From: Myxococcota bacterium
GTDB taxonomy: Bacteria; Myxococcota_A; UBA9160; PR03
Assembly: GCA_041611735.1 (NCBI GenBank)
Contig: JBFIML010000044.1
Coordinates: 1 to 37,235 of the forward strand
Length of the DNA stretch: 37,235 nt
Direction of reading: 5' to 3'
The notes under the pieces are model-generated. The model was not told the DNA's origin. It did not search any database and saw only the letters and a list, made by a program, of their open reading frames with translations. The position numbers and the translations under genes were made by a program. Within the stretch, counting starts at the first letter, position 1. The number at the start of each line of letters is the position of its first letter. Positions 15,841 to 37,105 of this stretch are shown here, piece after piece.

Positions 15841-15841
15841 G

Positions 15842-18069
15842 CTAGCGCGCCGGCGCGAGGACCAGCACTGCCAGCGGAGCGAGCCGCAGGCACAGGGACT
15901 GGAGATGGCCGTGCAGCGGCACGGGCTCCGCCTCCAGCTCGCCCCGGGTGGGATAGCCGCTTCCGGCGTAGCGCCCGTCGTCGCTGCAAAGCACCTGGCG
16001 ATAGCGCCCCGGGGACGGGACGCCGATCCGGTAGTCGTCCCGCGGCACCGGCGTCAGGTTGAGGACCACGACCCGGTGGTCGTCCCCGTCGCGGCGCAGG
16101 AAGGCGAAGACCGAGTTCTCGCGATCCGAGCAGTCGATCCAGGCGAAGCCCTCGGGATCCGGATCGCGGCGCCAGAAGGGAGGCGCCTCCCGATACAGCC
16201 GCCCCAGGTCCGCCAGGAAGGTGGCCAACCCCTGGCGCATGGGGTCGCCGGCCAGGTGCCAGTCCAGGCTCATGTCGTGGTCCCACTCCCGATGCGGTGC
16301 GAGCTCCGCCCCCATGAACAGGAGCTGCTTCCCGGGCCGCAGGAACTGGTAGGCCAGGAGCGCGCGCAGGTGGGCGAACTTCTGCCACGGGTCACCGGGC
16401 ATCTTCTCGAGCAGCGATCTCTTGCCGTGGACGATCTCGTCATGGGAGAGGGGATTGAGGAAGCGCTCGGTGTACTCGTACACCATGGCGAAGCTGAGCT
16501 GATCCTGATGCCAGGATCGATGCACGGGAGGCCGCTCGAAGTACTCGAGCGTGTCGTGCATCCACCCCATGTTCCACTTGAAGGAGAAGCCGAGGCCGCC
16601 CTCCTGCGGCGGGCTCGTCACGCCGCCCCAGGCGGTCGACTCCTCGGCGACGGTCAGGACCCCGGGCATGTCGTCGTGCAGGGTCTGGTTGAGGAAACGC
16701 AGGAACTCGACCGCCTCCAGATTCTCGCGTCCCCCATAAACGTTCGGGATCCACTCGCCTTCGCGACGGCCGTAATCCAGGTAGAGCATGGAAGCCACCG
16801 CATCGACACGCAGGCCGTCCACGTGAAACTCGCGCAGCCAGTACAGCGCATTCGAGATCAGGAAGTTGCGGACCTCGGTCCGGCCATAGTTGAAGATCAA
16901 GGTGCCCCAGTCCGGGTGCTCGCCGAGGCGTGGATCCTCGTGCTCGTAGAGTGGGGTTCCATCGAAGCGGCGCAGGGAGAAGTCGTCCTTGGGGAAGTGG
17001 GCGGGTACCCAGTCGAGGATCACCCCGACGCCATGGCGGTGGAGGTGGTTCACCAGGAAGCGCAGGTCGTCTGGCGAGCCGTAGCGCGAAGTGGGAGCGA
17101 AGTAGCCCGTCACCTGATAGCCCCAGGAGCCGTAGAAGGGGTGCTCCGCCAGGGGCAGGAACTCGATGTGGGTGTACCCGTAGCGCTGCGCGTACTCCAC
17201 CAGACGCGGGGCGATCTCCCGGTAGGTGAGGAAGCGGTTGCCCTCCTCCACGACGCGCGCGAAGGACCCGAGATGCACCTCGCAGATGGAGAGGGGCTCG
17301 CGGGCGGGTTCGCGTCGCGTCCGCTGTGCCATCCACTCGCCATCGCTCCAGGCGAAGCTCGACGCATGCACCCGTGAGGCGGTGCCCGGAGGACGCTCCA
17401 TGGCGAACGCGAACGGGTCCGTCTTGAGGCGCAGGGCTCCCTCGCGGGTGCGGATCTCGTACTTGTAGAAGGCTCCCGGCTCCACGCCGGGCACGAACAG
17501 TTCGAAGATCCCGGAGCGGCCCATGGAGCGCATGGGCAGGAGCCGGCCGTCCCAGCCGCAGAAGTCGCCCACCACGCTGACGCGCCGGGCACTGGGGGCC
17601 CACACGGCGAACGAGGTGCCCGGCACGCCGTCCACGCTCCGAAAGTGCGCGCCGAGCACCTGCCACAGCCGGCGATGGGTCCCCTCGTTGAACAGGTGCA
17701 GATCCACGTCCCCGAGCGTCGGCCAGAAGCGATAGGGGTCGTCGCGCTCCCACACGTCGCCGTGGGCGAAGCGGAAGCGGAGCCGGTAGCGCAGGGGCAG
17801 GCTGTGGTCGGCCAGGAATACGCCGAACAGCCCGTCACCCAGCGGCGCCATGGCCCGGGGCTCGGAATCCTCCAGCAGGCACTCGGCTCCGCTGGCGTCC
17901 GGATGGAAGGCGCGCACTACCACGCCGTCGCGGTCGGCGGCCCGTGCGGGGTGGGCTCCCAGGACGCGGTGGGGCTCGTGGTGTTCGCCGTGGCGCAGGG
18001 CCCGGGCATCCGCCGGAGAGACGGCGAGCACCGCCGACTTCACGCCGCCGTGGGTCGCGTCCTTCTGTG

Positions 18070-18073
<4 letters not shown>
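15842..18073 (-). CDS. glgB: 1,4-alpha-glucan branching enzyme
   Basis: ATG at 18073 overlaps the glgX stop. Motifs FAVWAP, EHPFYGSWGYQ, DWVPAHFP, GLRVDAVASMLY, AEESTAW, KWNMGWMHD and LSHDEIVHGK. Confidence 0.96.
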
Positions 18074-20183
<2,110 letters not shown>

Positions 20184-20184
<1 letters not shown>

Positions 20185-22018
20185 CAGGCGGTCTCGCCCG
20201 CGTAGTAGACGGCGCTCTCCGGGGCCAGGGGCAGGGCCGGCGCCCCCGCCGCCAGGCGGCGCGGCGCGGCGCTCCCGGGCCCGCCGAAGTCGCCATCCTG
20301 GCTGTCGATCCGCAGGCGCCAGGGGTGCCTGCCGGCCGGAAGCGGCAGCTTCGCCTCCGGCGTCCGGCCCAGGTGGAAGGCCGCCAGTCCCGGGCGCCCG
20401 CGCTCCGGAACGTAGTGGACGCGGATCCAGCCGGCTTCGGCATCGTGCTGGACGCGCACCTCCGCGGCGCCGGGGCGCAGCGCCGGCTCCTCCCGGCGCA
20501 GGCGCAGCAGGGCACGGTGCAGCGCCAGCAGGCCCGCCGGCTGGGGGCCCGACGCGCGCGCGCGGTCCAGGCGCGAGCGCTGGAAGGTGTCCTCCGCCGC
20601 CGGGTCGGGGACCGCGGCCTCGCCCACGAAGGCGGCGAACTCGCGCCGGCGTCCGCCGCGCACTGCGTCCAGCAGCGCCGGGTCCCCGTGGCTCACGAAG
20701 TAGAGGAACGGGTTCGTCTCCCCGTACTCCTCGCCCATGAAGAGCAGCGGAAGCCCGGGAGCGAGCAGCAGCAGGCTCGCCGCCAGTCGCAGGCGCGCCG
20801 GTCCCACCAGGGCGGCCAGGCGCTCGCCGAGGGCGCGGTTTCCGATCTGGTCGTGGTTCTGCACGAAGACCACGAAGCGATCCGCAGGCACGTCGCGGGC
20901 CGGCGCGCCGTGGCGGCGTCGCCGATGGACGGAGTAGCGCCCGTCGTAGACGAAGCGTTCCGCCAGGGCCCGCGCCACCGGCTCGACGCCTCCGAAGTCC
21001 TCGTAGTAGCCCGTGCGCTCGCCGGTCAACGCGGCGTGGACGGCGTGGTGGTAGTCGTCGTTCCAGACCGCGTCCAGGCCCAGACCGCCGTGTCGCACCT
21101 CGCGGACGAGCCGCGAGTCGTTCGCGTCGCTTTCCGCCACGACGTGCAGGGTGTGCCCGCGGCGCTTCTCGCATGCCCGCACGGTCTCGGCCAGCTCGGC
21201 CAGGAAGGGGCGGGCGCTCTCGTCGTGGATGGCGTGCACCGCGTCGAGTCGCAGCCCATCGAGATGATACTCCTCGAGCCAGTGACGCGCGTTGTCCAGG
21301 AAGTAGGCGCGCACCCCGTCGCTGTCCGACCCGTCGAAGTTGACCGCCGCCCCCCACGGCGTGCGGTAGGCGTCGGTGAAATATGGTCCGAAATCGGCGA
21401 GCACGTTGCCCTCGGGTCCCAGGTGGTTGTACACGACGTCCAGCACCACGGCGAGCCCGAAGCCGTGGGCCGCATCCACCAGACGCCGCAGGCCCTGTGG
21501 GCCCCCGTAGCTGTTCTGGGGCGCGTAGGGGAAGACGCCGTCGTAGCCCCAGTTGCGCGCGCCGGGGAACTGCGCGACCGGCATGAGCTCGACGGCGGTG
21601 ATGCCCAGCTCGCGCAGCGCCGGCAGATGGGCGATCGCTGCGTCGAAGGTCCCGGCCTCCGTGAAGGTCCCCACGTGGAGCTCGTAGAAGACGAGGTCCG
21701 CACGCGAAACGCCTGTCCACCCGCCGTCGGACCACGCGAAGGCGGTGGGATCGACCACCCGCGACGCGCCGTGCACGCCCTGCGGCTGGTGGCGGCTGGC
21801 CGGGTCGGCGCGCACGAGCCGGTCGTCGAGACGGAACCGGTAGTCGTCCCCGGCGCCGACGTCGTCCACCAGCGCCTCGAAGACCCCCGGCTGCCCCGGC
21901 GCGGGCGCCAGGGGTACGCAGCGCGGAGCGCCGCCCAGCAGCTCCACGGCCACGTGCGTCGCGTGGGGGGCCCACACGGAGAAGCGCACGCCGACGCCGG
22001 GGAGCGCTTGCGCGCCGT

Positions 22019-22022
<4 letters not shown>
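20184..22022 (-). CDS. treZ: Malto-oligosyltrehalose trehalohydrolase
   Basis: GTG at 22022. Motifs DPASRHQPQGVHGAS, YELHVGTFT, RNWGYDGV, GLRLDAVHAI, QNHDQIGNR and FMGEEYG. Confidence 0.96.
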
Positions 22023-25308
<3,286 letters not shown>

Positions 25309-25312
<4 letters not shown>

Positions 25313-27327
25313 GCGGCGGCAGGACGGGCGGGCGCGGGCAGGCGCAGCACGTGGGCCACCTTGTCGCCGGGATCGAGCCGCACGTAGTTGCGTACGCCCC
25401 GCCAGGTGTAGCGCTCGCCCGTGATCAGGTCCTCGACCGGAAAGGGATCCTCGGGCGTCAGGCCCAGGTCCGGGAGCGGCAGATGGACCAGGGTCTCCTG
25501 GGGACGCTGGGGGTCGAGGTTGACGGTCACCAGCAGCTCGTTGCCCGGCGCGGACTTGCGGTAGCAGAGGATGTGCTCGTTCTCGCTGGCCAGGAACTCC
25601 AGGTTGGCCAGCTGTCGGAACGCCGGGTTCTCGCGGCGGATCTGGTTCAGCCGGCGGATCTCGGCCTTCAAGTTGCCGGGCGCGTCCCAGTCTCGCTGGC
25701 GGATCTGGTATTTCTCCGAGTCGAGGTACTCCTCGCTCCCAGGTCGCACGGGGACGTTCTCGCACAGCTCGAAGCCGCTATAGATTCCGTAGAGGGGTGA
25801 CAGGGTGGCGGCCAGCACGAGGCGAACCCGGAACGCGGCGCGGCCGCCGGTCTGCAGGTACTCGTGCAGGATGTCCGGCGTGTTGGCGAAGAAGTTGGGC
25901 CGGAAGTACTCGGTCATGTCCGTGCGGGTCAGCTCGGTCAGGTACTCGCGCAGCTCCCAGGCCGTGTTCTTCCAGGTGAAATAGGTGTACGACTGCGTGA
26001 AGCCGAGCTTGGCCAGGCCCTTCATGCGCTTGGGACGCGTGAAGGCCTCGGCGAGGAAGAGGGTCTCCGGATGCCGGCGCTTCACGTCCGCGATCATCCA
26101 CTCCCAGAACGCCAGCGGCTTGGTGTGTGGGTTGTCCACCCGGAAGATCTGGACGCCCCGCTCGATCCAGAACAGCAACACGTCGCGGCACGCGTTCCAG
26201 AGGCCCTCGCGGTCCTCGCACCAGAGGTTGAGCGGATAGATGTCCTGGTACTTCTTGGGGGGATTCTCCGCGTAGCGAATCGTCCCGTCGGGGCGGACGT
26301 GGAACCACTCCGGGTGCTCCCGCACCCAGGGGTGATCCGGCGAGCACTGCAAGGCGTAGTCGAGGGCCACCTCGAGGCTCAGGCTCTTGGCGGTCTGCAC
26401 GAAGTGCTCGAAGTCCCGCAGCGTCCCGAGCTCCGGGTGCACGGCCGTGTGCCCGCCTTCCGGGCCGCCGATTGCCCAGGGGCTGCCCGGGTCGAGGGGG
26501 CCGGCGCCGGGTTTGTTGTTCGGGCCCTTGCGGTGGGTGCGCCCGATCGGGTGGATCGGGGGCAGGTAGATCACGTCGAAGCCGAGCTCGGCCAGCTCCG
26601 GGAGCCGTCGCTCGGCGTCGGCGAAGGTGCCATGGCGGCCGGGCACCCGGGCCTGGGAGCGCGGGAACAGCTCGTACCACGCGCCGAAACCCGCCGGCAC
26701 CGGGTCCACGATCACCGCCAGGACCCCGTCGTACCGGGTCAGCTCCACGGGGTCGATGGGGCCCTGGAGGAGGGCGAGCAGCTCGTCGGAGAAGGCCACC
26801 GCCAGGCGCTCGTCCTCGGGCAGGGAGGCGTCGCCGAGACGTTGCGCCTGCTCCCGAAGCCGCCGCGCCGCGGAGGCCCGGGCCGCGCCGGCGGCGCGCT
26901 CCAGCAGCCCCGCGCCCTCCAGCAGCTCACTGGCCACGTCCTGCCCCACGTCGATGCGCTTGCGCAGGTCCTCGCGCCAGGTTCGCCAGGGGTCCGGCCA
27001 GGCTTCCACCGTGTACTGCCAGTGGCCGATGCAGTCGAGCACGAACGAGCCGTACCAGCGGTCCGGATCGAAGTGATGGACGAGCGGCGCGTGGCGCCAG
27101 TCGCGGTCGGCGGGGCCCCGATAGCGGATGCGGGCGCCGAGGCGGTCGTGCCCATCCTTGTAGAGGTCGGCGCCCACCTCGAACTCGTCCCCCACGAGCC
27201 GCTTCACGGCATGACGCCCGCCGTCCACGCACGGCGATACGTTCTCGATCACGACGCGTGCGAAGCGCACGTCCCCCGGAGACGAGCGGCGGGGCCTGGA
27301 GTCGCGGGAAGGTGCCGGGCGGACCAT
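25309..27327 (-). CDS. glgE: Alpha-1,4-glucan:maltose-1-phosphate maltosyltransferase
   Basis: Motifs WYELFPRS, YLPPIHPIG, GSPWAIG, QCSPDHP, AENPPKKYQDIYP, FRVDNPHTKP, FLAEAFT and NTPDIL. Start is uncertain (27327 preferred; 27348 or 27384 possible). Confidence 0.95.
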
Positions 27328-27338
27328 CGAGCCGGCAG

Positions 27339-27348
27339 ATGGTAACAT
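27339..27348. promoter_or_regulatory. Symmetric bidirectional extended -10 element
   Basis: ATGGTAACAT reads TGgTAACAT on + (towards cdaA) and TGtTACCAT on - (towards glgE). Confidence 0.5.
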
Positions 27349-27376
27349 CCGCCACCGGACGTTTCTAGGGCACGAC

Positions 27377-27424
27377 GCTCGCAAGGTAGGGCTCGCAAGG
27401 TAGGACGGGGCAAGGTAGGACGGG
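27377..27424 (+). repeat. Three tandem direct repeats of GCAAGGTAGG
   Basis: Core copies at 27381, 27395 and 27410 (periods 14 and 15). GCTCGCAAGGTAGG x2 (27377-27404) overlaps GCAAGGTAGGACGGG x2 (27395-27424). Confidence 0.9.
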
Positions 27425-27438
27425 ATTGGGGGGCGTCC

Positions 27439-28647
27439 TTGTCTTTCCTGCGATCGCTGATCGAGATCGATCTCCGCGCGCTCGCGGACCTGATGGTCGT
27501 GGCGCTGCTCTTCTGGGCCCTCGTCCTATGGGTCCGCCGCACGCGCGCCCGCCTGGCGCTCGCGGGTCTCGCGATCGTGGGCGGGGTGTATCTGCTGGCC
27601 CGGGAGCTCGACCTGCGGCTCACCGCCTGGATCCTGCAGGGCTTCTTCGCCGTCTTCGTGATCGTGCTGGTGGTGGTGTTCCAGGAGGACCTGCGGCGGC
27701 TGTTCGAGCAGATCGCCGTCTGGGGCCTGCGCCGTCAGACGCCCCCGGCACCGCCCCAGGCGTTGGACATCCTGGCGCGGACCGTGGCACGGCTGGCTGC
27801 GACGCGGACCGGCGCCTTGCTGGTGCTGCCCGGCCGCGAGCCCCTGGACCGACACGTGGAGGGAGGCATTCTCCTCGACGGCCGCTTGAGCGAGCCGCTG
27901 TTGCTGAGCCTGTTCGATCCGCACTCTCCGGGCCACGATGGGGCGGTCGTGGTGGGCGGAGATCGGGTGATGCGATTCGCACTGCACCTGCCGCTCTCGA
28001 GCGACCGCGCGCAGCTCGCAGCCACCGGGACCCGTCACGCGGCCGGGCTCGGCCTGGCCGAGCGCACCGACGCGCTCTGCGTGGTTGTCTCCGAGGAGCG
28101 GGGAAGCGTGTCGGTGGCCCGGGAGGGGCGTCTGCGCCGGCTGCGTCGCCCCGAGGACCTGGCCGGGGAGCTGCGGCGCTTCCAGACCGAGACGGCGGTG
28201 CCGGCCGCGGACGTGGCGTCGGTCTGGCGCCGACTGGTTACGGGATGGCGCGAGGCCCTGGCCGCCGTGGTGGCGGCCGCCGGCGTGTGGGTGCTGGTGG
28301 TGCCGGGGTCCACGGTCACGGAGGTGGAGCGCACGGCGCTCGTCCGCGTGGAGAACCTGCCCGAAGGGTTCGTGCTCGACGCCGTGGAGCCTTCCGAGGT
28401 GCAGGTGGTGCTGTCGGGGCGCCGCCGGGACCTCGTCTTCCGCGACCGCGCCGCCCTCAGCGTTCCCATCGACGCGCTGCTGGTGAAGCTCGGTCGCCGC
28501 ACCTTCGACGTGGAGCCGGAGCGGGTGCGACGCCCACCGGGCCTGACGGTGGTGGCCGTGGAGCCCACGCGGGTGCGGGTCTCGGTGCGCCAGGTCGGGG
28601 AGGGCGCACGCGAGAAGAGCGGCGCTTCCGGCCCGAACGCCCCGTGA
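27439..28647 (+). CDS. cdaA: Diadenylate cyclase (CdaA/DacA type) fused to a TM helix and a YbbR/CdaR-like domain
   Basis: Three N-terminal TM helices ending VVFQEDLRR. DAC motifs TGAL, PGHDGAVV and GTRHAAGLGL.E.TDA..VVVSEERG.VS. Then a TM helix and a beta-rich YbbR-like region (V.VENLP.G...EP.EV.V.LSG, ...VEP.RV.V). Confidence 0.9.
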   Translation: MSFLRSLIEIDLRALADLMVVALLFWALVLWVRRTRARLALAGLAIVGGVYLLARELDLRLTAWILQGFFAVFVIVLVVVFQEDLRRLFEQIAVWGLRRQTPPAPPQALDILARTVARLAATRTGALLVLPGREPLDRHVEGGILLDGRLSEPLLLSLFDPHSPGHDGAVVVGGDRVMRFALHLPLSSDRAQLAATGTRHAAGLGLAERTDALCVVVSEERGSVSVAREGRLRRLRRPEDLAGELRRFQTETAVPAADVASVWRRLVTGWREALAAVVAAAGVWVLVVPGSTVTEVERTALVRVENLPEGFVLDAVEPSEVQVVLSGRRRDLVFRDRAALSVPIDALLVKLGRRTFDVEPERVRRPPGLTVVAVEPTRVRVSVRQVGEGAREKSGASGPNAP

Positions 28648-28656
28648 GCGACGCGG

Positions 28657-29751
28657 TCAGCCGGCGTCGTCGCCCAGGTACTCGCGCAGCTTCGCCTTCC
28701 AGCCCGGATCGTCGATGCGCTGGAGGAGCGTCCGGTTGAGGGGCTCGCGCAGCGGACTGCCCGGCGGAAGCGCGATCGCATAGTCCTGACGCTCGAGGTC
28801 GAAGGGCAGCGTGCGCAGCTCGCCCGGCCATTCGGTCTTGACCAGGTGGCGGAGGATCGGGGCGTCGTAGACCGCCGCGTCGGCCCGGCCCGCGACCACC
28901 GCCTGCAGGGCGTCGCGCACCCCCGGGTAGGCACGGAAGCCGATGCCCTCCCGCTCGAGCCAGCGCCCGCTCGTGGTGCGGGCCACCGAGGCGACGCGCA
29001 CCCGGGCCAGGTCCCGGGGGCCGCGAATCGACGACTCGAGCTGCGAGAGGGTGAGGGCCGAGGCGATCGCCGCCGTGAAGCCCGAGATCGTGACGATGCT
29101 GAAGAACATCCAGAACAGGGCCAGCGTGCGCCCGGCGAAGGTGCGCGGCGCCTTGTCCCCGTAGCCCACGGTGGTCATGGTCACGGCCGCCCACCAGAAG
29201 CCGGAGCCGATCCCCTGAGCGGTGCCACCCCCGAACTGCTCGGGGTTGCGGCGCCGCTCCAAGGCCCACACCGCCAGGCCGGCCAGGAACAGGGCCACGG
29301 CGAGGGCCCACAGGGCGCGCAGGAAGGCGGACGACGCGAGCCGCGCCAGGGCGCCGCGCCAGCTTCCCTGCCCCCGCGCCGCCACGACCACGCCCAGCCC
29401 CGAGCCGTAGAAGGGATGCGTGAAATCCATGCGCTCCTCGCGCTCACCCGTGACGGTCAGCGCCCCGAGCCCTGCATCCAGGGAGCCCGAGGCGACGCCG
29501 TCGAGCAGGGGCTCGAGGTCGAGGGGCTCCAGCCGGAAGCTCCGCTCGAGCCGCGTCGCGAGATCCCGCCACAGCTCGACCGCAAGTCCACTCCAGACGC
29601 CCTCGGGGCTTCGCAGGGCGAAGGGCGGCGCCTCCTTCACGCCGACGACGAGCTCGCCTTCGGCCGCTCCTGCGCCTCCCGCGAGCCAGAGCCCGAGCGC
29701 CAGCACGACGGCGCCGCGCCGGCGCCCGTGCACCGCGGCCAGTCGCCTCAT
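28657..29751 (-). CDS. GluR0-like ligand-gated potassium channel (split amino-acid-binding domain plus K+ pore)
   Basis: Signal peptide; S1 (VGV...PPF, LTVTGERE..DFTHPF); M1; pore WWAAVTMTTVGYGD; M2 ending FTAAIASALT; S2 (TTSG, YDAPIL, YAIALP.GSPLR..LN..LL). Confidence 0.9.
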   Translation of the reverse strand: MRRLAAVHGRRRGAVVLALGLWLAGGAGAAEGELVVGVKEAPPFALRSPEGVWSGLAVELWRDLATRLERSFRLEPLDLEPLLDGVASGSLDAGLGALTVTGEREERMDFTHPFYGSGLGVVVAARGQGSWRGALARLASSAFLRALWALAVALFLAGLAVWALERRRNPEQFGGGTAQGIGSGFWWAAVTMTTVGYGDKAPRTFAGRTLALFWMFFSIVTISGFTAAIASALTLSQLESSIRGPRDLARVRVASVARTTSGRWLEREGIGFRAYPGVRDALQAVVAGRADAAVYDAPILRHLVKTEWPGELRTLPFDLERQDYAIALPPGSPLREPLNRTLLQRIDDPGWKAKLREYLGDDAG

Positions 29752-29773
29752 CCCCTTCCCTCCGGGCGGCGAG

Positions 29774-31000
29774 TCACGGCACGTAGCGCTCGAAGAAGCT
29801 CTTCAGCGAGCGGCCGGCCGCCTGCTCCGCCAGCACGCGGAAGCGCTCCGTGGTGATCGGGCTACGCTCCTCCAGAAGCGCCCGCAGCACGTCGTCCAGA
29901 TCGTTCTCGCCGTCGCTGGCCTTCTCGATGGCTCCGTTCAAGCGGTCGAGCACCGCCACGGCGCGTGCGGTGGTCGCCCCCGAAGCCTCGGCGATCCTCA
30001 GCTTCGACGCCCGCTCCCCGCGCGCCGTCAGCCGCGCCAGGGTCTTCTGGTAGCGCCTCCGGCTCACGGTGCGCGATCGGACCAGGAGCTGCAGCGAGTA
30101 GTACTCGGCCAGCCCCTCGATGATCCAGTCCGCGTCGGCGGCCGGTCGCGCACGCAGCACCGAGTGGACCAGCTCGTGCAGCAGCGGACTCGTCCCGTCG
30201 CTCGAGATCAGCGGACGGGCAGCGTGTACGTAGAGGGAGTTCGGGCCAGACAGGCCTCCACGCCACATGGGATCTCCGGCCCCCACCACCAGGAGTCGCT
30301 CGGGGAGCGTGCCGAGGGCGTCGCGCAGCTCGGGTAGCGTCCAGCGCAGCAGGGCCAGCAGGTCCAGACGCCGCAGTCCCTGGCGGGTCGGACCGGCCAC
30401 CGACACCCGCGTGCCCGCGATCCGCTCGCGCACCACGCCGAGCTTGCCGGCCACGAACCAGCCGATGGGCCGGTCGAAGCCCCGATCCGGGTGGTCCAAC
30501 GTGAAGGTCCCGTCGGCGGCGCGGGCGTAGGGTACGGCCACCGACCATCCCTCGGGCAGGCGCAGCCGAAGCCGGGAGCGCGAGAGCGCCCCCACCCGGG
30601 TCACCACGCGCGCCGGCGGTACGAGATCGTCGCCGCGGAACAACGCCCAGTTGGCCGCGCAGCGGGAGTCGTAGGAGCGCCGGTCGCGCAGATGGTCGAT
30701 GCGGAAGCGGTAGCGGAGGCTGCCGCCCACCGACGGCGGGGTCCATTCGACTTCGCTGCCTTCCACCGCGACCTCGCCCGATCCCTCGAAGTCGCGGTGC
30801 CGCTCCGGATCGATCTTGAAGCGGATGCGTCGGAGCTGCTGCGCCCCATCGCCGAGCTGGATCGAGACGCGGGCCACCTTCTCGGTGGGAACGAGGCGCA
30901 CGTCGTAGAGTACGTGGTAGCGCGTCTCCTGGGCCGCCGTGGGGAGGGCGCCGACGAGAAGCGCGGTCGCCACCCCGGCTGCCAGCAGCCCGGATCTCAC
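29774..31000 (-). CDS. Secreted gluzincin-type (HEXXH...E) metallopeptidase, M61/MA-like
   Basis: GTG at 31000 overlaps the ATP-grasp stop. Signal peptide MRSGLLAAGVATALLVGALPTAA; beta-rich N-domain; GGL; LLHELVHS...WIIEGLAEYY. Confidence 0.8.
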   Translation of the reverse strand: MRSGLLAAGVATALLVGALPTAAQETRYHVLYDVRLVPTEKVARVSIQLGDGAQQLRRIRFKIDPERHRDFEGSGEVAVEGSEVEWTPPSVGGSLRYRFRIDHLRDRRSYDSRCAANWALFRGDDLVPPARVVTRVGALSRSRLRLRLPEGWSVAVPYARAADGTFTLDHPDRGFDRPIGWFVAGKLGVVRERIAGTRVSVAGPTRQGLRRLDLLALLRWTLPELRDALGTLPERLLVVGAGDPMWRGGLSGPNSLYVHAARPLISSDGTSPLLHELVHSVLRARPAADADWIIEGLAEYYSLQLLVRSRTVSRRRYQKTLARLTARGERASKLRIAEASGATTARAVAVLDRLNGAIEKASDGENDLDDVLRALLEERSPITTERFRVLAEQAAGRSLKSFFERYVP

Positions 31001-31950
31001 GGTGTGCGGCCCGCCGCGATCTGCCGGCCGAGCGCCACGCGCTCCGCCAGGGGAAGGGCGCGTTCGGCTTCCCCGAGCCGGTCCACCGCATCGAGGCGGG
31101 GGAGCAGCCCCGCCCGGTTTGCGATCTGGATCGCCAGGCCCGGGCGCGCGTTCAGCTCGAGCACCACGGGGCCGCGGCGGGTGTCCACCACCACGTCGCA
31201 GCCCACGTAGCCGAGGCCGGTCTGTTCGGACGCCTGCACGGCGATCTCGAGCAGACGCGTGAAGTCCGGGATCGTGCGCCCGAGCAGGGGTCGTCCGGTG
31301 TCCGGATGGACGTGGATCGGATCGTTGCGCACCACTGCGTGGAGGGTGCGTCCATCCGCCAGGCTCACGCCGGCCCCGATGGCGCCCTGATGGAGGTTCG
31401 CACGCCCCCCGGAGCGCCGCGTCGGGAGGCGCGTCATGACCATGACCGGAATCCCGCGGTAGACGATCACGCGCACGTCCGGGACCCCCTCGAACGTGAT
31501 CTCCGCCAGCTCCGGGTGCACCTCCAGACGCTCTTCCACCAGTACCTGGTCCGTCTGGCCGCCCAGGGCATACAGACCCGAGATGATGCCCGAGGCGTGG
31601 TAGACCAGGTCGGCGGTGCGGATCCAAAGCCCGCCCGAGCGGAGCAGACGGTCCTCGCGACGGTCCCAGATCACCAGGATCCCGTCTCCCTGGGCGCCGT
31701 GCGCCGGCTTCATCACGAAGGAAGCGTGCGCCGCAAGCCGATGCGGGAGGTCGCGCAGCTCGAAGTGGTGGCGGGCCACGGCATACAGTGCGGGGACCGG
31801 GATCCCGGCCGCCTGGCACAGGCGCTTGGACAGGAGCTTGTCGTCCACGCGAGGGTAGAAGCGCCGGGGATTCACGCGCAGGGTGTACTGCGCGTTGCGG
31901 CGGTTGATGCCGAGCACGCCCTCGCGGCGCAAGGTGCGAAGCAGCCTCAC
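30997..31950 (-). CDS. Alpha-L-glutamate ligase-like ATP-grasp protein (RimK-related; TIGR02291/ATPgrasp_ST type)
   Basis: GTG at 31950, 317 aa. Motifs GVLGINRRN...NPR..YP.VDDKL, FVMKPAHG.QG.GI, ISGLY.LGG, GVPDVRVIV, RLPT..S.G.ANLHQGAIG.G and LELNARPGL.IQIAN. Confidence 0.92.
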   Translation of the reverse strand: MRLLRTLRREGVLGINRRNAQYTLRVNPRRFYPRVDDKLLSKRLCQAAGIPVPALYAVARHHFELRDLPHRLAAHASFVMKPAHGAQGDGILVIWDRREDRLLRSGGLWIRTADLVYHASGIISGLYALGGQTDQVLVEERLEVHPELAEITFEGVPDVRVIVYRGIPVMVMTRLPTRRSGGRANLHQGAIGAGVSLADGRTLHAVVRNDPIHVHPDTGRPLLGRTIPDFTRLLEIAVQASEQTGLGYVGCDVVVDTRRGPVVLELNARPGLAIQIANRAGLLPRLDAVDRLGEAERALPLAERVALGRQIAAGRTP

Positions 31951-33527
31951 GGCGTGGCGCCTCCCGCGGGACGGCTGAAGACGCGGAAGCGGATCAGATC
32001 GCTGACCCGGTAGCCGGTATAGCTGCCCATCAGGACGAGCAAGCCCATCACACAGAAGACGAGCTCCGGAAAGCCGAACATGACGTGCTGGGCGAAGCGG
32101 CTCTGGAACACCGGATAGGCGCTCACGGCCACGAGTGTGGACCACATGGCGCGGATCAGCGCCTCGCGCAAGCCCTCCTCGGCCATGACGATGGAGAATC
32201 GTTCGATCAGCATGGTGAGGATGACGATGGGAAAGAGCACACCCTGGACGAGCTGGCGGCTCTCGCTGCTGCGGCCCAGGATCGCCAGGGCCGTGACGCC
32301 CAGGATGACCAGGCACAGCAGGATCGAGAGCCGCGGCACCAGCAGGAGTCGCAAGCGTTCCAGCAACACGCGCCCCAGGATCCCGATGGCGATCACCGCC
32401 GCCACCATGGCAAGGCCCAGACCGAGCGAGCTTTCCCGCAACGCGAGGGCGATCAGCACCGGCATGAAGGTGCCGAAGGTGGGAACGCCCACCACGTTGC
32501 GGAAAGCAGCCACGACCAGCGTGCCCAGGGGGATCACCAGCAGCAGCCGCATTACGCGTTGCGTCGCCACGGGAAGGCGGTAGAGGGAGAGGGAGGCCAC
32601 CACGGGGTTGGGTGGCACCATCATGACGGCCAGCTCCTCCGGGCGCAGCCGCTGGCGCAGGGCGTCGTAGCGGAACGCGACGGCCTGGATTCCCGTGGCC
32701 CGGATGCCCTGGAGCGAACCGGCCTGGAGCACCAGGCGATCGGCAGGGCGACGCCCGAAGAATCCCTCCACGGGCGAGAGCGAGATCCAGCTCCGCCCGA
32801 GCCAGGCCTCGGCCCAGGCAGCGAGCTGGGGCTCCGCATCGCCGCGCAGGCGCAGCCCGAGCACGGGTCGGGCCGGAATGCCCGCCGTGCGGAGCAAGGT
32901 CACCAGCAGGCGCGACTTGCCTTCTTCGTTGCCTTCCCGGGCAGCCAGGGTGAGGAAGGCGTCGTCGCTGCCCGTGGAGGCGGTGGCGATCTCGTCGCTC
33001 ACGAAGGCGAAGATCGTGCGCAGCCGCCCCACGGGATCCTCGAGAGGGGGGAGCGGCAGGGTCTCCAGAACGCCTCGCATCTCCGGGGCGTAGGAGGGGA
33101 AGTCGGCGCTCGGCTCGCCGTACTCGCGGGCGACGGACGCGGGCGGCGGCGCCACCGGCGGCTCCGGCAGCAGCGTCTCGACCTCGGAGAGCTGGACCCG
33201 GAACCCGTGCACGATCTCGTGCACCCCCCGGAAGCGGCCACTCCAGACGCCGGTACGGCGGTCGTCGTCGCTGCGGATGCTGAACACCAGGCGGTCCGAG
33301 ACGGATCGTTCGTCGAACACGACCTGGCCGGTCCCCGAGGAAGGCAGAGGCGCCTGAACGCTGCCCCGGCGCCCCGTGCCGCGCGCCGTGATGGTCAGAT
33401 CCACCCGCCACAGTCCCTGGGGATCGGAGGGCACGAGGGGCAGATCCAGCGCCAGCACCTTCCAGAGGAAGACGGTGCTTCCGAACAGGAGCAGGGCGAT
33501 CCCGGTCCAGCGTGCCGCGGGGTTCAT
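31947..33527 (-). CDS. Inactive transglutaminase-like domain fused to a 7-TM domain (UUP1/RloB-type membrane protein)
   Basis: N-terminal TM. The transglutaminase-like segment (GNEEGKSRLL..LLR.AGIPAR, LAAWAEAW, W..LSP) lacks Cys/His/Asp. The 7TM region has SLYRLP, RNVVGVPTFGTFMPVLIALA, LLLVPRL, FPIVILTMLIER and G.YTGYR..DL.RF. Confidence 0.9.
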   Translation of the reverse strand: MNPAARWTGIALLLFGSTVFLWKVLALDLPLVPSDPQGLWRVDLTITARGTGRRGSVQAPLPSSGTGQVVFDERSVSDRLVFSIRSDDDRRTGVWSGRFRGVHEIVHGFRVQLSEVETLLPEPPVAPPPASVAREYGEPSADFPSYAPEMRGVLETLPLPPLEDPVGRLRTIFAFVSDEIATASTGSDDAFLTLAAREGNEEGKSRLLVTLLRTAGIPARPVLGLRLRGDAEPQLAAWAEAWLGRSWISLSPVEGFFGRRPADRLVLQAGSLQGIRATGIQAVAFRYDALRQRLRPEELAVMMVPPNPVVASLSLYRLPVATQRVMRLLLVIPLGTLVVAAFRNVVGVPTFGTFMPVLIALALRESSLGLGLAMVAAVIAIGILGRVLLERLRLLLVPRLSILLCLVILGVTALAILGRSSESRQLVQGVLFPIVILTMLIERFSIVMAEEGLREALIRAMWSTLVAVSAYPVFQSRFAQHVMFGFPELVFCVMGLLVLMGSYTGYRVSDLIRFRVFSRPAGGATP

Positions 33528-33542
33528 GGCGTCTTCGCCGGC

Positions 33543-34655
33543 CTACTCGGGCCGCTCGTCCACCTCGAAGGAACCGTCACCGCCTGCGTCCGGGGCCGTC
33601 CCGTCGGCTTCCTCGTCCGAGGTGAGGATGGTGCCCTCGGAGTAGTCCGGTTCGATTCCGATGTGGAAGGCCGCGTAGCCGGGGATCACGATCTGGTCCA
33701 CCGCCATGCCGATCACCCGGCCGCGTTGGGGGGCGCGCACCACGGCTCGCTCGTTGGAGAGGGGGTCGATCACGATGCCGAGCACCTCGCCCTCGGCCAC
33801 CACGTCGCCCACCGAAACCCGGGCACGCAGAATGCCCCCGTCGTCCACACGCACCCAGCGCGAGCGATAGTAGACGCGCTGGTTGCCCCGCAACCACGAG
33901 CCACGTTCGTCCAGCATCTCGAGAGAGCGCATGACGCTACGCACTCCCTGCACCCCGCGTTCCACTTCCTCGCGCTGGAAGCGCGTGGGCTCGCCGGCTT
34001 CGTAGGTGATGGCCGGAATCGTTGCCGACACGGCCGCTCGCCGCAGGGTACCCGGGGTGCCGACGGAGTGCACCACGATCTCGGCCCCGAAGGCAACGGC
34101 CAGCTCGGTCACCTTCGGCTCGCGCAGATCGGCGCGCACCTGGGGCACGTTGGTACGATGGAAGGAGCCCGTGTGCAGGTCCACCAGCATGTCGCAGTGC
34201 CGGATCACGCCGTCGAAGAAGGCGTGCGCGATGCGTGATGCCGAACTGCCGTGGGGATTGCCGGGGAAATAGCGATTCAGGTCGCGCCGATCCGGAAGGT
34301 ACCGGGAGCCGCGGCGGAAGCCGTGCAGGTTCACGATGGGCACCGCGATGACGGTGCCCGAGAGCTTCACGGGATCCACTTTCTCGACTACCTGCCGCAC
34401 GATCTCGACGCCGTTCACCTCGTCGCCGTGGACGCCCGCCGTGAGGCACAAGGCCGGCCCGGACTGCATGCCGCGCAGCACGAAGACGGGCGTGGGCAGC
34501 GAGTCGCCCACGAACGACTCGCTGGCCACCAGGGCGAGCGGCCGCGCCTCGCCCGGCACCACCACCTCGCCGAGCAGGTGCAGGGGCGACCACCCGTCGG
34601 CGGCGCTGGCGCTCACCACGAGCGCCCCCAAGATCACGCACAGGGCTCGAGTCAT
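33543..34655 (-). CDS. Secreted succinylglutamate desuccinylase/aspartoacylase-family (M14-like Zn carboxypeptidase) protein
   Basis: Signal peptide MTRALCVILGALVVSASAA. Zn motifs AGVHGDEVNG, RRDLNRYFPG, DLHTG and ITYEAG; a biotinyl-like C-domain; an acidic tail. Confidence 0.9.
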   Translation of the reverse strand: MTRALCVILGALVVSASAADGWSPLHLLGEVVVPGEARPLALVASESFVGDSLPTPVFVLRGMQSGPALCLTAGVHGDEVNGVEIVRQVVEKVDPVKLSGTVIAVPIVNLHGFRRGSRYLPDRRDLNRYFPGNPHGSSASRIAHAFFDGVIRHCDMLVDLHTGSFHRTNVPQVRADLREPKVTELAVAFGAEIVVHSVGTPGTLRRAAVSATIPAITYEAGEPTRFQREEVERGVQGVRSVMRSLEMLDERGSWLRGNQRVYYRSRWVRVDDGGILRARVSVGDVVAEGEVLGIVIDPLSNERAVVRAPQRGRVIGMAVDQIVIPGYAAFHIGIEPDYSEGTILTSDEEADGTAPDAGGDGSFEVDERPE

Positions 34656-34663
34656 GGCGCGCT

Positions 34664-34672
34664 AGGCTAGCA
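34664..34672 (-). promoter_or_regulatory. Extended -10 element for the five-gene operon (probably leaderless)
   Basis: Minus strand TGcTAGCCT, 8 nt before the ATG at 34655, with no SD. Confidence 0.4.
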
Positions 34673-34739
34673 CCCGATCCTGCGACGCCGGCGCCGCGCG
34701 CGCGAGCCCCGGCTGCCTGGCGTGGCGGTGCCGCGCCGC

Positions 34740-35111
34740 TCAGCGTGGAATCCGGGCATCGGCGGTGCAGCGGCGGCCGGCGACCTCCAGTACGGCCACG
34801 TACTTCTGCGGCGTCCGGTCCAGATCGAGGCCGATGCGAGCCGTGAAGGGCCCCGGGCCCACGGGCCGGCCCTCGCCGGAGACGAAGCTGCCAGAGGGGT
34901 TGCGGGCTGCGAGCCACGCCTTCGCCGGCGAGCCGGCGCGGCCCTGGACGGTCCACGCCGCCCGCACCGAGCCCGGCCGCACGTCCCACTGCGCGACTTG
35001 CACCACGCGGATCTCGCAATGCTCCGGGCGCAGCGCTCCGCCGCGTCCGGCGCATGCGACCGCGAACAGCACCAGGGCCGCCACGGCGGCGATGCGCGTA
35101 CCGCTGCTCAT
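34740..35111 (-). CDS. Hypothetical lipoprotein (123 aa, beta-rich)
   Basis: GGAGG lies 9 nt before the ATG at 35111. Lipobox FAVAC; two further Cys near the ends of the domain (possible disulfide). Confidence 0.7.
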   Translation of the reverse strand: MSSGTRIAAVAALVLFAVACAGRGGALRPEHCEIRVVQVAQWDVRPGSVRAAWTVQGRAGSPAKAWLAARNPSGSFVSGEGRPVGPGPFTARIGLDLDRTPQKYVAVLEVAGRRCTADARIPR

Positions 35112-35153
35112 CAGGGTCACCCTCCTGCGGCCACCAAGGGGGGCCTTCTCCCC

Positions 35154-35768
35154 TCAGTCGATGCCGAAACTGGACTGCTCGCCGGGGTAGATGTCGTTGC
35201 GGCGGATCACCAGGAAGAAGAGACTGTAGGTCTCGAAGGAGGCGCGGCCGAGCACGCCCTCGCTGTCGGCCACGCTCGCCCCGCTGCGGTCGTGGGCCAC
35301 CAGTCGCAGCTGGGCGTAGCCGCGCTGCTTCAGTACGCGGGCGAACGGAATCTCCGGGGTGGAGCCGCCGGGAATCGGGAGCGCTGGAACTCCGAAGCTC
35401 GTGTTGCGTGAGGCGGTGCCGAGGCCTCCCGCCAGCAGCACCAGCACCCACTCTGCCTGCTCGAGAGCCACCACCCGCGCTCCCAGCGTTCGCGCGCGGG
35501 CCTCGGCCAGAGCCTGGGCGTAGGGTGCATCGGCGCCGTTCAGGGCCGCCACCTCCACCGCCACCGCGCGCCCCTCGAGGTCCGGCCAGGTGAGGGCGTC
35601 GAGGGCGCGCTCCGCAGCTCGGTGGACGAGGAGCTGCTCGGTGGCCGAGCGGGGCGTCTCGGTCACGTAGCGCTGGTAGGTGCAGCCGAGTCCCAGTGCG
35701 GCGCCGAACAGGATCCACGACGGCGCTGCCAGAATGGCAGGCGCGCGGCGAACCAACGATCGTTTCAT
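35154..35768 (-). CDS. Lipoprotein, DUF6655/MafA-like
   Basis: ATG at 35768 and lipobox LGLGC. TETPRSATEQLL...A.ERA followed later by FGVPALPIP...PEI...K.RGYA resembles this family from memory. Confidence 0.65.
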   Translation of the reverse strand: MKRSLVRRAPAILAAPSWILFGAALGLGCTYQRYVTETPRSATEQLLVHRAAERALDALTWPDLEGRAVAVEVAALNGADAPYAQALAEARARTLGARVVALEQAEWVLVLLAGGLGTASRNTSFGVPALPIPGGSTPEIPFARVLKQRGYAQLRLVAHDRSGASVADSEGVLGRASFETYSLFFLVIRRNDIYPGEQSSFGID

Positions 35769-35893
35769 CGACCCCCCTGGCGAGGTGCATACGGTAGGAA
35801 GCCCCGCGGCGGACGCAAGCCGTCCCCCCGGGTCCGCAGCGCGGAGGACGCCGCGAAGATAGACTGGGTGCCGCTCGGTGGGGAGGATACGGA

Positions 35894-37105
35894 ATGGGCG
35901 ATTGGCTCCGCGATCAGCTTCGCCGCCGGCCACTGTGGTTGAACCTGCTGCTCGGCTTCTGCGCCTACATGGCCTTCGTCTACGTGCCGTGGGATCTGCT
36001 GGCCAAGCCCGTGGCACACGACGAGCAGGCCTGGTTCGGCTTCGTCGTGCACGGCTGGGCCGCCAAGCTCACCACCCCGCTGCACGGGATCGTCTACGGA
36101 CTCGCCGCCTACGGCTTGTGGCACAGCAAACGCTGGATGTGGCCCTGGGCGGCCGTGTACGCCGCCTACGTGGCACTGAGCATGGTCGTCTGGTCGTTCG
36201 TGTCCTACGAGGGGGCGTGGCCATCGCTGGCGATCGCGGGGGCCACCTCCCTCCCGCTCGGGGCCCTGGCCGTGGCGCTGTGGCGCGCGCGTCCGCACTT
36301 CCAGGCGGAGCGGCCTCCGCTGCGGGGCCGCTACGGGGAGTGGGCGCTGGTGACCGGCGCTTCGGCGGGGATCGGGGCCGCCTTTGCCCGGGCCCTGGCT
36401 CGAGAGGGATTCTCGGTCGTCCTCACGGCGCGCCGGGAAGACCGGCTGCGCCAGCTCGCCGCGGAGCTCGAGAAGACTCACGCGGTGGCGACCCGCGTGG
36501 TGGTCGTGGACCTGACCGCGCCGGATGGGGCCGATGTGCTGGTCGAGCGCGTGGCGGACCTCGAGGTGGGCATGCTGGTGAACAACGCGGGCTTCGGCTG
36601 GCAGGGCCGTTTCCACCGGCAGGAAGGCCGCCGACTGCGGGAGATGGTGCAGCTCAACTGTGTGGCCCCGGTGGTCCTCACGGCCCGGCTGTTGCCGGGC
36701 ATGCGCGCGCGCGGACGCGGTGCGGTGATCTTCACCGGCTCTGCGGCGGGCCGGCAACCGCTCCCGCTGCATGCCGTCTACGCCGCCACCAAGGCCTTCG
36801 ATGGATTCCTGGGAGAGGCCTTGTGGGCCGAGCTGCGCGGCAGCGGGGTGGACGTGCTGGTGCTCGAGCCCGGTGCCACGGAGAGCGAGTTCCAGGCGGT
36901 GGCCGGAGAGATCGCGCACGCCGGGGAGCCGGCGGAGCGGGTGGTGGCGCTCGCCCTGGAGCGGCTGGGCCGCCAGCCTTCCGTGCTCTCGGGGTGGTGG
37001 AACTGGCTGCGGGCCAACGCGGGCGCGCGGCTGCTGCCACGGACGGTCTTGTTGCTGCTGGCGCAGCGCGTGATGGAGAAACGGACGCCCCCCGCCAAAC
37101 TCTAG
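35894..37105 (+). CDS. Short-chain dehydrogenase/reductase fused to an N-terminal multi-TM domain
   Basis: SD GGAGG. The first ~135 aa form about 4 aromatic-rich TM helices. The SDR part has ALVTGASAGIG, ARR (NADP-type), LVNNAG, GS.AG, YAATK and PGAT.SEF. Confidence 0.88.
   Translation: MGDWLRDQLRRRPLWLNLLLGFCAYMAFVYVPWDLLAKPVAHDEQAWFGFVVHGWAAKLTTPLHGIVYGLAAYGLWHSKRWMWPWAAVYAAYVALSMVVWSFVSYEGAWPSLAIAGATSLPLGALAVALWRARPHFQAERPPLRGRYGEWALVTGASAGIGAAFARALAREGFSVVLTARREDRLRQLAAELEKTHAVATRVVVVDLTAPDGADVLVERVADLEVGMLVNNAGFGWQGRFHRQEGRRLREMVQLNCVAPVVLTARLLPGMRARGRGAVIFTGSAAGRQPLPLHAVYAATKAFDGFLGEALWAELRGSGVDVLVLEPGATESEFQAVAGEIAHAGEPAERVVALALERLGRQPSVLSGWWNWLRANAGARLLPRTVLLLLAQRVMEKRTPPAKL

Follow-up and report, generated by a model that had tools for sequence, protein, structure and literature searches.

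The locus considered here raises the question of why the gene for a potassium (K+) channel of the GluR0 type, related to prokaryotic glutamate receptors, should close a row of genes that otherwise encodes a peptide ligase, its membrane partner and two peptidases. The row lies in a stretch of 37,235 nucleotides (nt), hereafter the window, from a Myxococcota bacterium (GenBank assembly GCA_041611735.1, contig JBFIML010000044.1), and its five genes are called A to E in the order in which they are read. Judged from their predicted products, A to D are a non-canonical variant of the Rlo system of Pseudomonas aeruginosa, in which the peptidase RloA is replaced by A and D. E is, by its distribution, a lineage-specific addition to this Rlo-type module. 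The five genes and the spacer in front of E are:

Gene A, 34655..33543, minus strand: 370 amino acids (aa), secreted zinc hydrolase of the AstE/AspA family (M14-like).
Gene B, 33527..31947, minus strand: 526 aa, RloB-like membrane protein.
Gene C, 31950..30997, minus strand: 317 aa, GTG start, RloC-like cytoplasmic ATP-grasp ligase (alpha-L-glutamate ligase-like).
Gene D, 31000..29774, minus strand: 408 aa, GTG start, secreted two-domain zinc peptidase with the M1/M61 fold.
D-E spacer, 29752..29773, minus strand: 22 nt, with a Shine-Dalgarno-like run, GGAGGGAAGGGG, immediately 5' of the ATG of E.
Gene E, 28657..29751, minus strand: 364 aa, GluR0-type ligand-gated K+ channel.

Re-reading of the coordinates on the minus strand bore out the arrangement given in an earlier note on this DNA, with five co-directional genes, a gap of 15 nt between A and B, a GTGA start/stop overlap at both B/C and C/D, and a D-E gap of 22 nt. 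The families that it had assigned to the five products were all upheld by profile matches in Pfam and NCBIfam. A, B and E have the high third-position G+C of coding sequence; for C and D the coding status rests on family matches and conservation.

B and C form the core of the module. B matches PF14402 (7TM_transglut, E-value 7e-63), PF01841 (Transglut_core, 1.7e-12) and PF14400 (Transglut_i_TM, 2.1e-8), and consists of an N-terminal transmembrane helix, a transglutaminase-like domain and a 7TM domain. Where the catalytic Cys would be expected B has a Ser, and 41 orthologues show no conservation of this position. B is the sole PF14402 match in the genome, and since it reaches 210 bits against a cut-off of 900 for NF052267, the RloB 'exception' model, it is not an orthologue at the level of that model. 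C matches PF14397 (ATPgrasp_ST, 3.9e-79) and scores 370 bits with TIGR02291, above the cut-off of 314. An identification of C as RimK was rejected (TIGR00768, 51.5 bits against a cut-off of 143). Docking weakly supports a model in which C may sit on the 7TM part of B. The score was 0.44, with 0.00 for the best control, at least 88% of contacts agreeing between runs and a partner pLDDT (predicted local distance difference test) of at least 81; of 157 solved complexes, 116 attain the docking mark used, as do 2 of 215 mismatched pairs, and scores of 0.60 or under comprise just 18 of the 157 complexes, yet both mismatches.

The B-C pair had been described in the earlier note as a module of unknown product. 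This is corrected in part, as the pair can now be identified as RloB/RloC of the Rlo system. RloABC of P. aeruginosa (Lormand et al., mBio 2025, PMC12239564) has the same inactive-transglutaminase/7TM protein beside a TIGR02291/PF14397 ligase, together with a secreted peptidase. According to the main text of that paper, RloA is a secreted retropepsin that cuts runs of at least eight Glu, loss of the three RloA paralogues leads to hypo-osmotic sensitivity, and mutations in rloB or rloC suppress this defect of the triple rloA mutant. The same text places 96% of the RloB matches in Proteobacteria; it mentions no carboxypeptidase, metallopeptidase or potassium, and the supplements may show a wider distribution. 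We liken the poly-glutamate and osmotic-stress link of RloABC to the module described here, for which the evidence is one of gene context. The two differ in that a retropepsin RloA (PF05618) is absent from the five genes in the Pfam scan, and in that A and D both appear exopeptidase-like, whereas RloA is an endopeptidase needing at least eight Glu. Moreover, a K+ channel gene is appended here, and the host belongs to a lineage of 72% G+C rather than to the mainly proteobacterial carriers of RloABC.

The first of the two peptidases, A, matches PF24827 (AstE_AspA_cat, 2.6e-46) over profile positions 2-191 of 192, and its top sequence match in the PDB is 3cdx (2e-21). Its HGDE and DLHTG motifs align with that structure and the HxxE...H zinc site is present; we take the residues of these motifs to be the zinc ligands. 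The candidates AstE, AspA and DoeB were rejected because all NCBIfam equivalog scores were far under their cut-offs (TIGR02994, 74 bits against 403; NF002601, 37 against 180; TIGR03242, 29 against 306). A begins with a hydrophobic, signal-like segment (residues 1-23) and ends in an acidic tail. Another contig of the same genome, C6 (L166:386-1932 and L167), carries RimK, an AstE-like paralogue of A and, convergent to them, a RimB-like retropepsin of 158 aa, the only PF05618 match in the genome; none of this set has an export signal. The paralogue beside RimK is 44% identical to A and lacks the hydrophobic segment. Because this signal-less paralogue adjoins RimK and the RimB-like retropepsin, the relation of A to it parallels the published relation of RloA to RimB, and A would be an exported copy of a cytoplasmic glutamate-trimming enzyme. 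The cytoplasmic glutamylation systems RimK-RimB and RimK-AstE-like likewise pair an ATP-grasp alpha-L-glutamate ligase with a glutamate-removing peptidase; the module in the window differs from them in the export signals on its peptidases, in its 7TM partner and in a ligase that is not RimK. Peptidase partners of such ligases were reportedly noted by Iyer and colleagues in Mol Biosyst in 2009.

D contains an HELVH...E motif, and all of 48 sequences compared share its H275, E276, H279 and E295. Its Pfam match to Peptidase_M61 is borderline (22.0 bits at a cut-off of 22), no NCBIfam model matched, and a sequence search of the PDB gave no match at E-values up to 1. The AlphaFold2 model has a mean pLDDT of 92, falling below 50 in residues 1-22, a hydrophobic segment of low confidence. 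The top Foldseek matches of this model were 4fgm, 7xyo, 6ifg and 8j9c, all with probability 1.00 and with query TM-scores (template modelling scores) of 0.59-0.72, at identities of only 16-19%. D shares with the M1/M61 gluzincin aminopeptidases an N-terminal beta domain and a thermolysin-like HEXXH...E catalytic domain, but differs from them in that its 408 aa form just two domains. In D we did not identify GXMEN, the canonical exopeptidase motif of M1; an invariant D243-P-M-W-R-G-G-L-S251 precedes HEXXH in the 48 sequences. The protein is basic, with an isoelectric point of about 10.3. Export-type hydrophobic N-termini are thus present on both A and D, in agreement with the two secreted peptidases of the earlier description, and among the homologues such a segment lies within the first 60 residues in 43 of 47 for D and in 18 of 27 for A. 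D-like genes, 46-51% identical, also occur as orphans without RloB nearby (L158, L159, L160, L163 and L164), where they adjoin HDOD-domain and MoaA-like radical-SAM genes.

The combination of these genes recurs among relatives. Of 61 genomes in the order (this one included), 37 carry an RloB homologue; a D homologue is present in 40 of 401 genomes from a sample of the phylum, and these 40 belong to one class. From that class 54 loci were fetched, 48 of which hold RloB. The order is ABCD in 23 loci, BCD in 16, BC in 5, and ABCDE, BCDA and B only in one each; six loci have D only, and one further ABC is cut by a contig end. B, C and D hence occur together in 41 of the 48 RloB loci, and A is present in 26. 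Gene order is the same as here in G003, a genome from a sister genus of the same family; its D-E spacer has 26 nt with GGGAGG, and its proteins are 68-77% identical to A-D and 66-69% identical to E. At L153:5675-13205 (minus strand), a true RimK and another AstE-like gene come after A-B-C-D, and the exported and RimK-type sets are united in one cluster.

A gammaproteobacterial sample was composed of 201 genomes of the class of genome G434, the class being taken from a pseudomonad label. PF14402 occurs in 29 of the 201, a tally that includes the unpublished genome G576, which contributes to no other result. In all 27 loci fetched from this sample an RloA-like gene stands beside RloB; an AstE-like gene is found in five and a D-like gene in one. 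The AstE-like gene lies 3' of a canonical rloABC in four of the 27 and 5' of rloA in one (L174, L183, L186, L189 and L191), and the products are 48-53% identical to A. At the one locus that was read for this purpose, L183, the AstE-like protein has 475 aa and a long N-terminal extension. The D-like gene, 43% identical, follows rloABC at L175.

The last gene of the row, E, matches SBP_bac_3 (3e-17, residues 34-360), Lig_chan (1.1e-16, 147-251) and Ion_trans_2 (7.8e-14). It is laid out as a signal-like segment, S1, M1, a P-loop with TVGYG, M2 and S2, with hydrophobic segments at 138-166 and 209-235 and no third transmembrane helix. The top PDB match is 2pyy (9.3e-27), the ligand-binding core of a bacterial homologue of ionotropic glutamate receptors (iGluR), and it is limited to residues 34-126 and 241-347. 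R104, D296 and T194-G198 (TVGYG) are invariant in 82 homologues, and R104 and D296 align with the corresponding residues of 2pyy. Following the iGluR literature, we take R104 and D296 to contact the alpha-carboxyl and alpha-amino groups of the ligand. R258 was tried as a contact for an acidic side chain and rejected, as it is Gly in G003 and Gly or Asn in most homologues. The prediction of a GluR0-like K+ channel is borne out, since E has the K+ filter and conserves both the Arg and the Asp of amino-acid binding. With GluR0 (Synechocystis slr1257; Nostoc core 2pyy) E shares the S1-M1-P-M2-S2 layout, TVGYG and this Arg and Asp, and differs from it in sitting in a gene row with a peptide ligase and peptidases. 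A 2026 paper (PMC13099474) reports that Synechocystis GluR0 is a K+ channel of the plasma membrane and affects cell volume after a KCl upshock. There it acted as a passive influx path, and effluxed glutamate is named by the authors as a possible activator. The direction of K+ through E would be set by the membrane potential and is not readable from the sequence.

We propose the following sequence of events for the module. C would build an alpha-glutamyl peptide or tail at B, and the glutamyl product would reach the periplasmic side. D, as an aminopeptidase-like enzyme acting at the N-terminus, and A, acting on a C-terminal acidic residue, would trim this product to free glutamate. In the present lineage the released glutamate would be coupled to K+ flux by E as a glutamate-gated channel; elsewhere it would be imported by a sodium:dicarboxylate symporter (SDF) fusion (G020) or oxidised by glutamate dehydrogenase. 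The physiological frame would be K+/glutamate homeostasis, i.e. osmotic balance and cell volume. A periplasmic glutamate-releasing Rlo variant operating within K+/glutamate osmotic homeostasis is the reading that we favour, and we regard it as probable, though with a good deal of room for error.

The glutamate theme of the module, already suggested in the earlier note, is supported by the poly-glutamate link of Rlo and by the glutamate-handling neighbours in other genomes. Neighbours were counted by a uniform tblastn search over the 48 RloB loci, with Pfam scans of the flanks. Glutamate dehydrogenase is found near five of them, in three cases co-directional at 41-107 nt (upstream in L113 and L115, downstream in L116). 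At one of the 48 loci (L129:11800-14055, plus strand, genome G020) a 752-aa SDF symporter with a C-terminal SBP_bac_3 fusion directly follows D. A common origin of this SBP domain and the binding domain of E was considered and rejected (28% identity over 90 residues), and so low an identity does not speak for a common ligand. The SDF fusion is followed by a DUF2062 gene, and DUF2062 also adjoins the rlo operon of L018. MscS is near 12 of the 48 loci; in L112 and L149 it immediately precedes the module in the same direction, and in L142, L143 and L152 a small regulator-like open reading frame (ORF) stands between a preceding MscS and A-B-C-D. CdaA is near nine loci, RloA-like genes are near six and a Kef-like gene (Na_H_Exchanger plus TrkA_N) near four, and RimK stands beside the module in two (L153 and L162, Pfam). 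The same queries over the 27 gammaproteobacterial rlo loci gave no CdaA, glutamate dehydrogenase or Kef-like gene.

The occurrence of the channel was surveyed in the best 80 homologues in species genomes and in 80 metagenome loci, the latter with a median length of 4.8 kb and with 30 of them at least 8 kb long. Two channel homologues form a tandem pair on one metagenome contig (L244:1582-3698). The presence of the channel near the module in other genomes had been set beforehand as a test, and the answer is mostly no, with one of the 48 RloB loci, one of the 80 genome loci, none of the 80 metagenome loci and one of the 27 gammaproteobacterial loci.

A number of observations, gathered here, weigh against the reading of the five genes as one glutamate-releasing and glutamate-sensing system. 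Among the 48 RloB loci the channel adjoins the module only in G003, and within the family RloB is present in 15 of the 16 other genomes, against a channel homologue in just one. RloB and RloC lie within 10 kb of the channel in a single one of the best 80 genome loci, L018, where an MscK-like gene, a PilZ gene and an opposite-strand gene separate it from a canonical rloABC. In the metagenome loci, with the short median length given above, A, B, C or D was found in none of 80, and the channel was inside a module operon in none of the 160 channel-homologue loci elsewhere. Among ten channel-carrying genomes, PF14402 was not found in seven, and in two of the remaining three the genes are unlinked. 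The adjacency of channel and module belongs to one evolutionary lineage, comprising this genome and G003. Glutamate is a putative ligand of E, side-chain specificity being unreadable from its sequence, and the best NCBIfam match of E, below cut-off, is the glutamine-binding GlnH. No product of RloC is identified in the main text of PMC12239564 or here, and the five genes as one transcript are a candidate unit. MscS was near none of the 27 gammaproteobacterial rlo loci, and the MscS/CdaA neighbour signal is partly inherited gene order, because it is concentrated in few families. At L183, the single gammaproteobacterial locus with a channel homologue, this lies 4.6 kb upstream with four unrelated genes between.

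The closed circuit of ligand and receptor that had been put forward in the earlier note is therefore, from the rarity of the channel near the module elsewhere, not a general design. For this clade it is still a reasonable hypothesis, since in other genomes the ends of the module hold other glutamate-handling genes. There are hints of a loop in this clade that would sense self-made glutamate and be tied to osmotic balance, and such a loop is plausible. The variant locus itself is real; the claim of a closed circuit is a hypothesis that rests on one lineage.

Rival accounts differ mainly in the part that they give to E. The channel gene might be a passenger, horizontally acquired between D and cdaA in the ancestor of the two genera, with no functional tie to the module and read through from the operon or from a weak promoter of its own. 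We take this possibility seriously and consider it doubtful. The place of the channel gene is an insertion position, because cdaA directly follows D, in convergent orientation, in the channel-less relatives L117, L122, L124, L125 and L127. The closest homologues of E outside G003 are 53-57% identical and labelled as other phyla, channel homologues of the same order are just 34-46% identical to E, and the channel family overwhelmingly occurs without the module, all as expected of a passenger. Yet the junction is tight in both genera, at 22 and 26 nt, and each has a ribosome-binding run there; the divergence of E (66-69% identity) is about that of A-D (68-77%), so that E has been retained since before the genera split. 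That the corresponding places in other lineages hold other glutamate-handling genes, and that MscS is a recurrent neighbour common to the channel family and the module, also speaks for a functional tie.

The product of C may instead be a modified protein or envelope component, for example a peptidoglycan-related peptide, which A and D would trim while E senses another amino acid or general amino acid availability. The Rlo substrate is left open in the main text of PMC12239564, which points to cell-shape and beta-lactam phenotypes; moreover, the specificity of SBP_bac_3 is broad and GlnH is the best NCBIfam match of the binding domain of E. Against this stand the glutamate dehydrogenase and dicarboxylate-symporter neighbours, which point to free glutamate, the basic character of D, and a family membership of A that implies action on N-acyl Glu/Asp. 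A conserved C-terminal Glu or acidic tail on RloB, as a protein substrate, was considered and rejected, since none exists in the RloB orthologues here, and this too argues against protein modification; overall we hold this account to be unlikely. Very improbable, in our judgement, is nutrient scavenging, in which A and D would digest external peptides, E would report amino acids, and B and C would be mere neighbours. Export signals on both peptidases and the orphan D paralogues away from RloB (L158-L160, L163 and L164) would suit it, but B-C-D are contiguous in 41 of 48 loci, start/stop overlaps join them here, and AstE-like genes and a D-like gene stand at 5 and 1, respectively, of the 27 canonical gammaproteobacterial rloABC. 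The glutamate-releasing Rlo variant thus stays our preferred reading.

A broader extension of this preferred reading starts from MscS. It is near 23 of the 80 genome and 11 of the 80 metagenome channel loci (34 of 160), counts that overstate the independent events because many loci are related; judged by record labels, at least eight lineages contribute MscS-channel pairs. At seven loci a large, Pfam-confirmed MscS-family gene stands directly beside the channel:

L006:7976-11059, co-directional MscS-channel pair, gap of 6 nt.
L050:2-2467, co-directional MscS-channel pair, gap of 9 nt.
L012:6200-11017, co-directional MscS-channel pair.
L029:9968-13444, co-directional MscS-channel pair.
L011:2280-5344, convergent MscS-channel pair.
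L039:2790-5032, convergent MscS-channel pair.
L060:9797-13558, convergent MscS-channel pair.

The co-directional pairs have gaps of 6-170 nt, the seven loci come from several phyla, and several of the channel-side MscS proteins share 41-51% identity with the MscS encoded ahead of the module in genome G318. MscS, GluR0-type channels and Rlo-type modules might then be a three-way network of recurrent neighbours, in which periplasmic glutamate would serve as a self-generated K+-gating signal in volume regulation. The pairs of this network are seen in different phyla, and all three members are co-directional in one array of G003. Glutamate would exit via MscS, or the peptidases would free it from an exported glutamyl polymer. 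We offer the network as a speculation of low probability; if true, it would make the module the ligand source for an ionotropic receptor and a prokaryotic autocrine counterpart of glutamatergic signalling.

The B-C core is already known as part of Rlo, and the metallopeptidase form A-B-C-D was not found described in the literature searched. Neither was a GluR0-type channel joined to a ligase/peptidase module, and PMC2950845 makes no mention of gene context. The pairing of MscS and channel genes was likewise not found in print, and the text of PMC13099474 has no mention of an operon or of adjacency in that sense. In Pseudomonas, Rlo is important for tolerance of antibiotics, for the formation of biofilms and for osmotic survival. 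The flanking channel, symporter or glutamate dehydrogenase genes provide independent comparative evidence for free glutamate as the periplasmic end-product, and the variant with A and D offers a simpler enzyme set for in vitro tests with poly-glutamate. The role of prokaryotic glutamate receptors has been an open question since 1999. The first direct evidence for such a role that we found dates from 2026 (PMC13099474), and the MscS-GluR0 pairing gives these receptors a concrete setting, that of K+/glutamate release and volume control.

The limits of the transcription unit and the surroundings of the row involve three further features of the window:

Upstream ORF 1, 35768..35154, minus strand: small, co-directional, lipoprotein-like N-terminus.
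Upstream ORF 2, 35111..34740, minus strand: small, co-directional, lipoprotein-like N-terminus.
cdaA, 27439..28647, plus strand: CdaA-type diadenylate cyclase (DAC, 1.8e-33; CdaA_N, 2.6e-6).

The single candidate promoter of the earlier description was not recovered, as a consensus scan of 28300-36000 found no sigma-70-like site, a result that is uninformative at the 72% G+C of the host. In the same scan no minus-strand terminator-like site was found within the five genes. Because two co-directional ORFs stand upstream of A, with intergenic gaps of 42 and 84 nt, the unit may begin further upstream and exceed five genes. Of the predicted five-gene operon, the five genes and their spacings therefore hold, and the upstream boundary is doubtful. 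Neither upstream ORF matched a Pfam family; the final 25 residues of ORF 2 match G003 with 68% identity. In that genome an MscS-like gene (an ORF of 417 aa) occupies the place of the upstream ORFs (34740-35768), and an MscS gene 5' of A was looked for in the window and not found.

On the other side, cdaA is convergent with E. Their stop codons are only 9 nt apart, so the two transcripts would have to overlap. Beyond cdaA, an alpha-glucan/trehalose cluster occupies positions 13711-27384 (minus strand) and includes a 4-alpha-glucanotransferase, an alpha-amylase-family gene, a TreS-maltokinase-like fusion of 1252 aa and GlgE.

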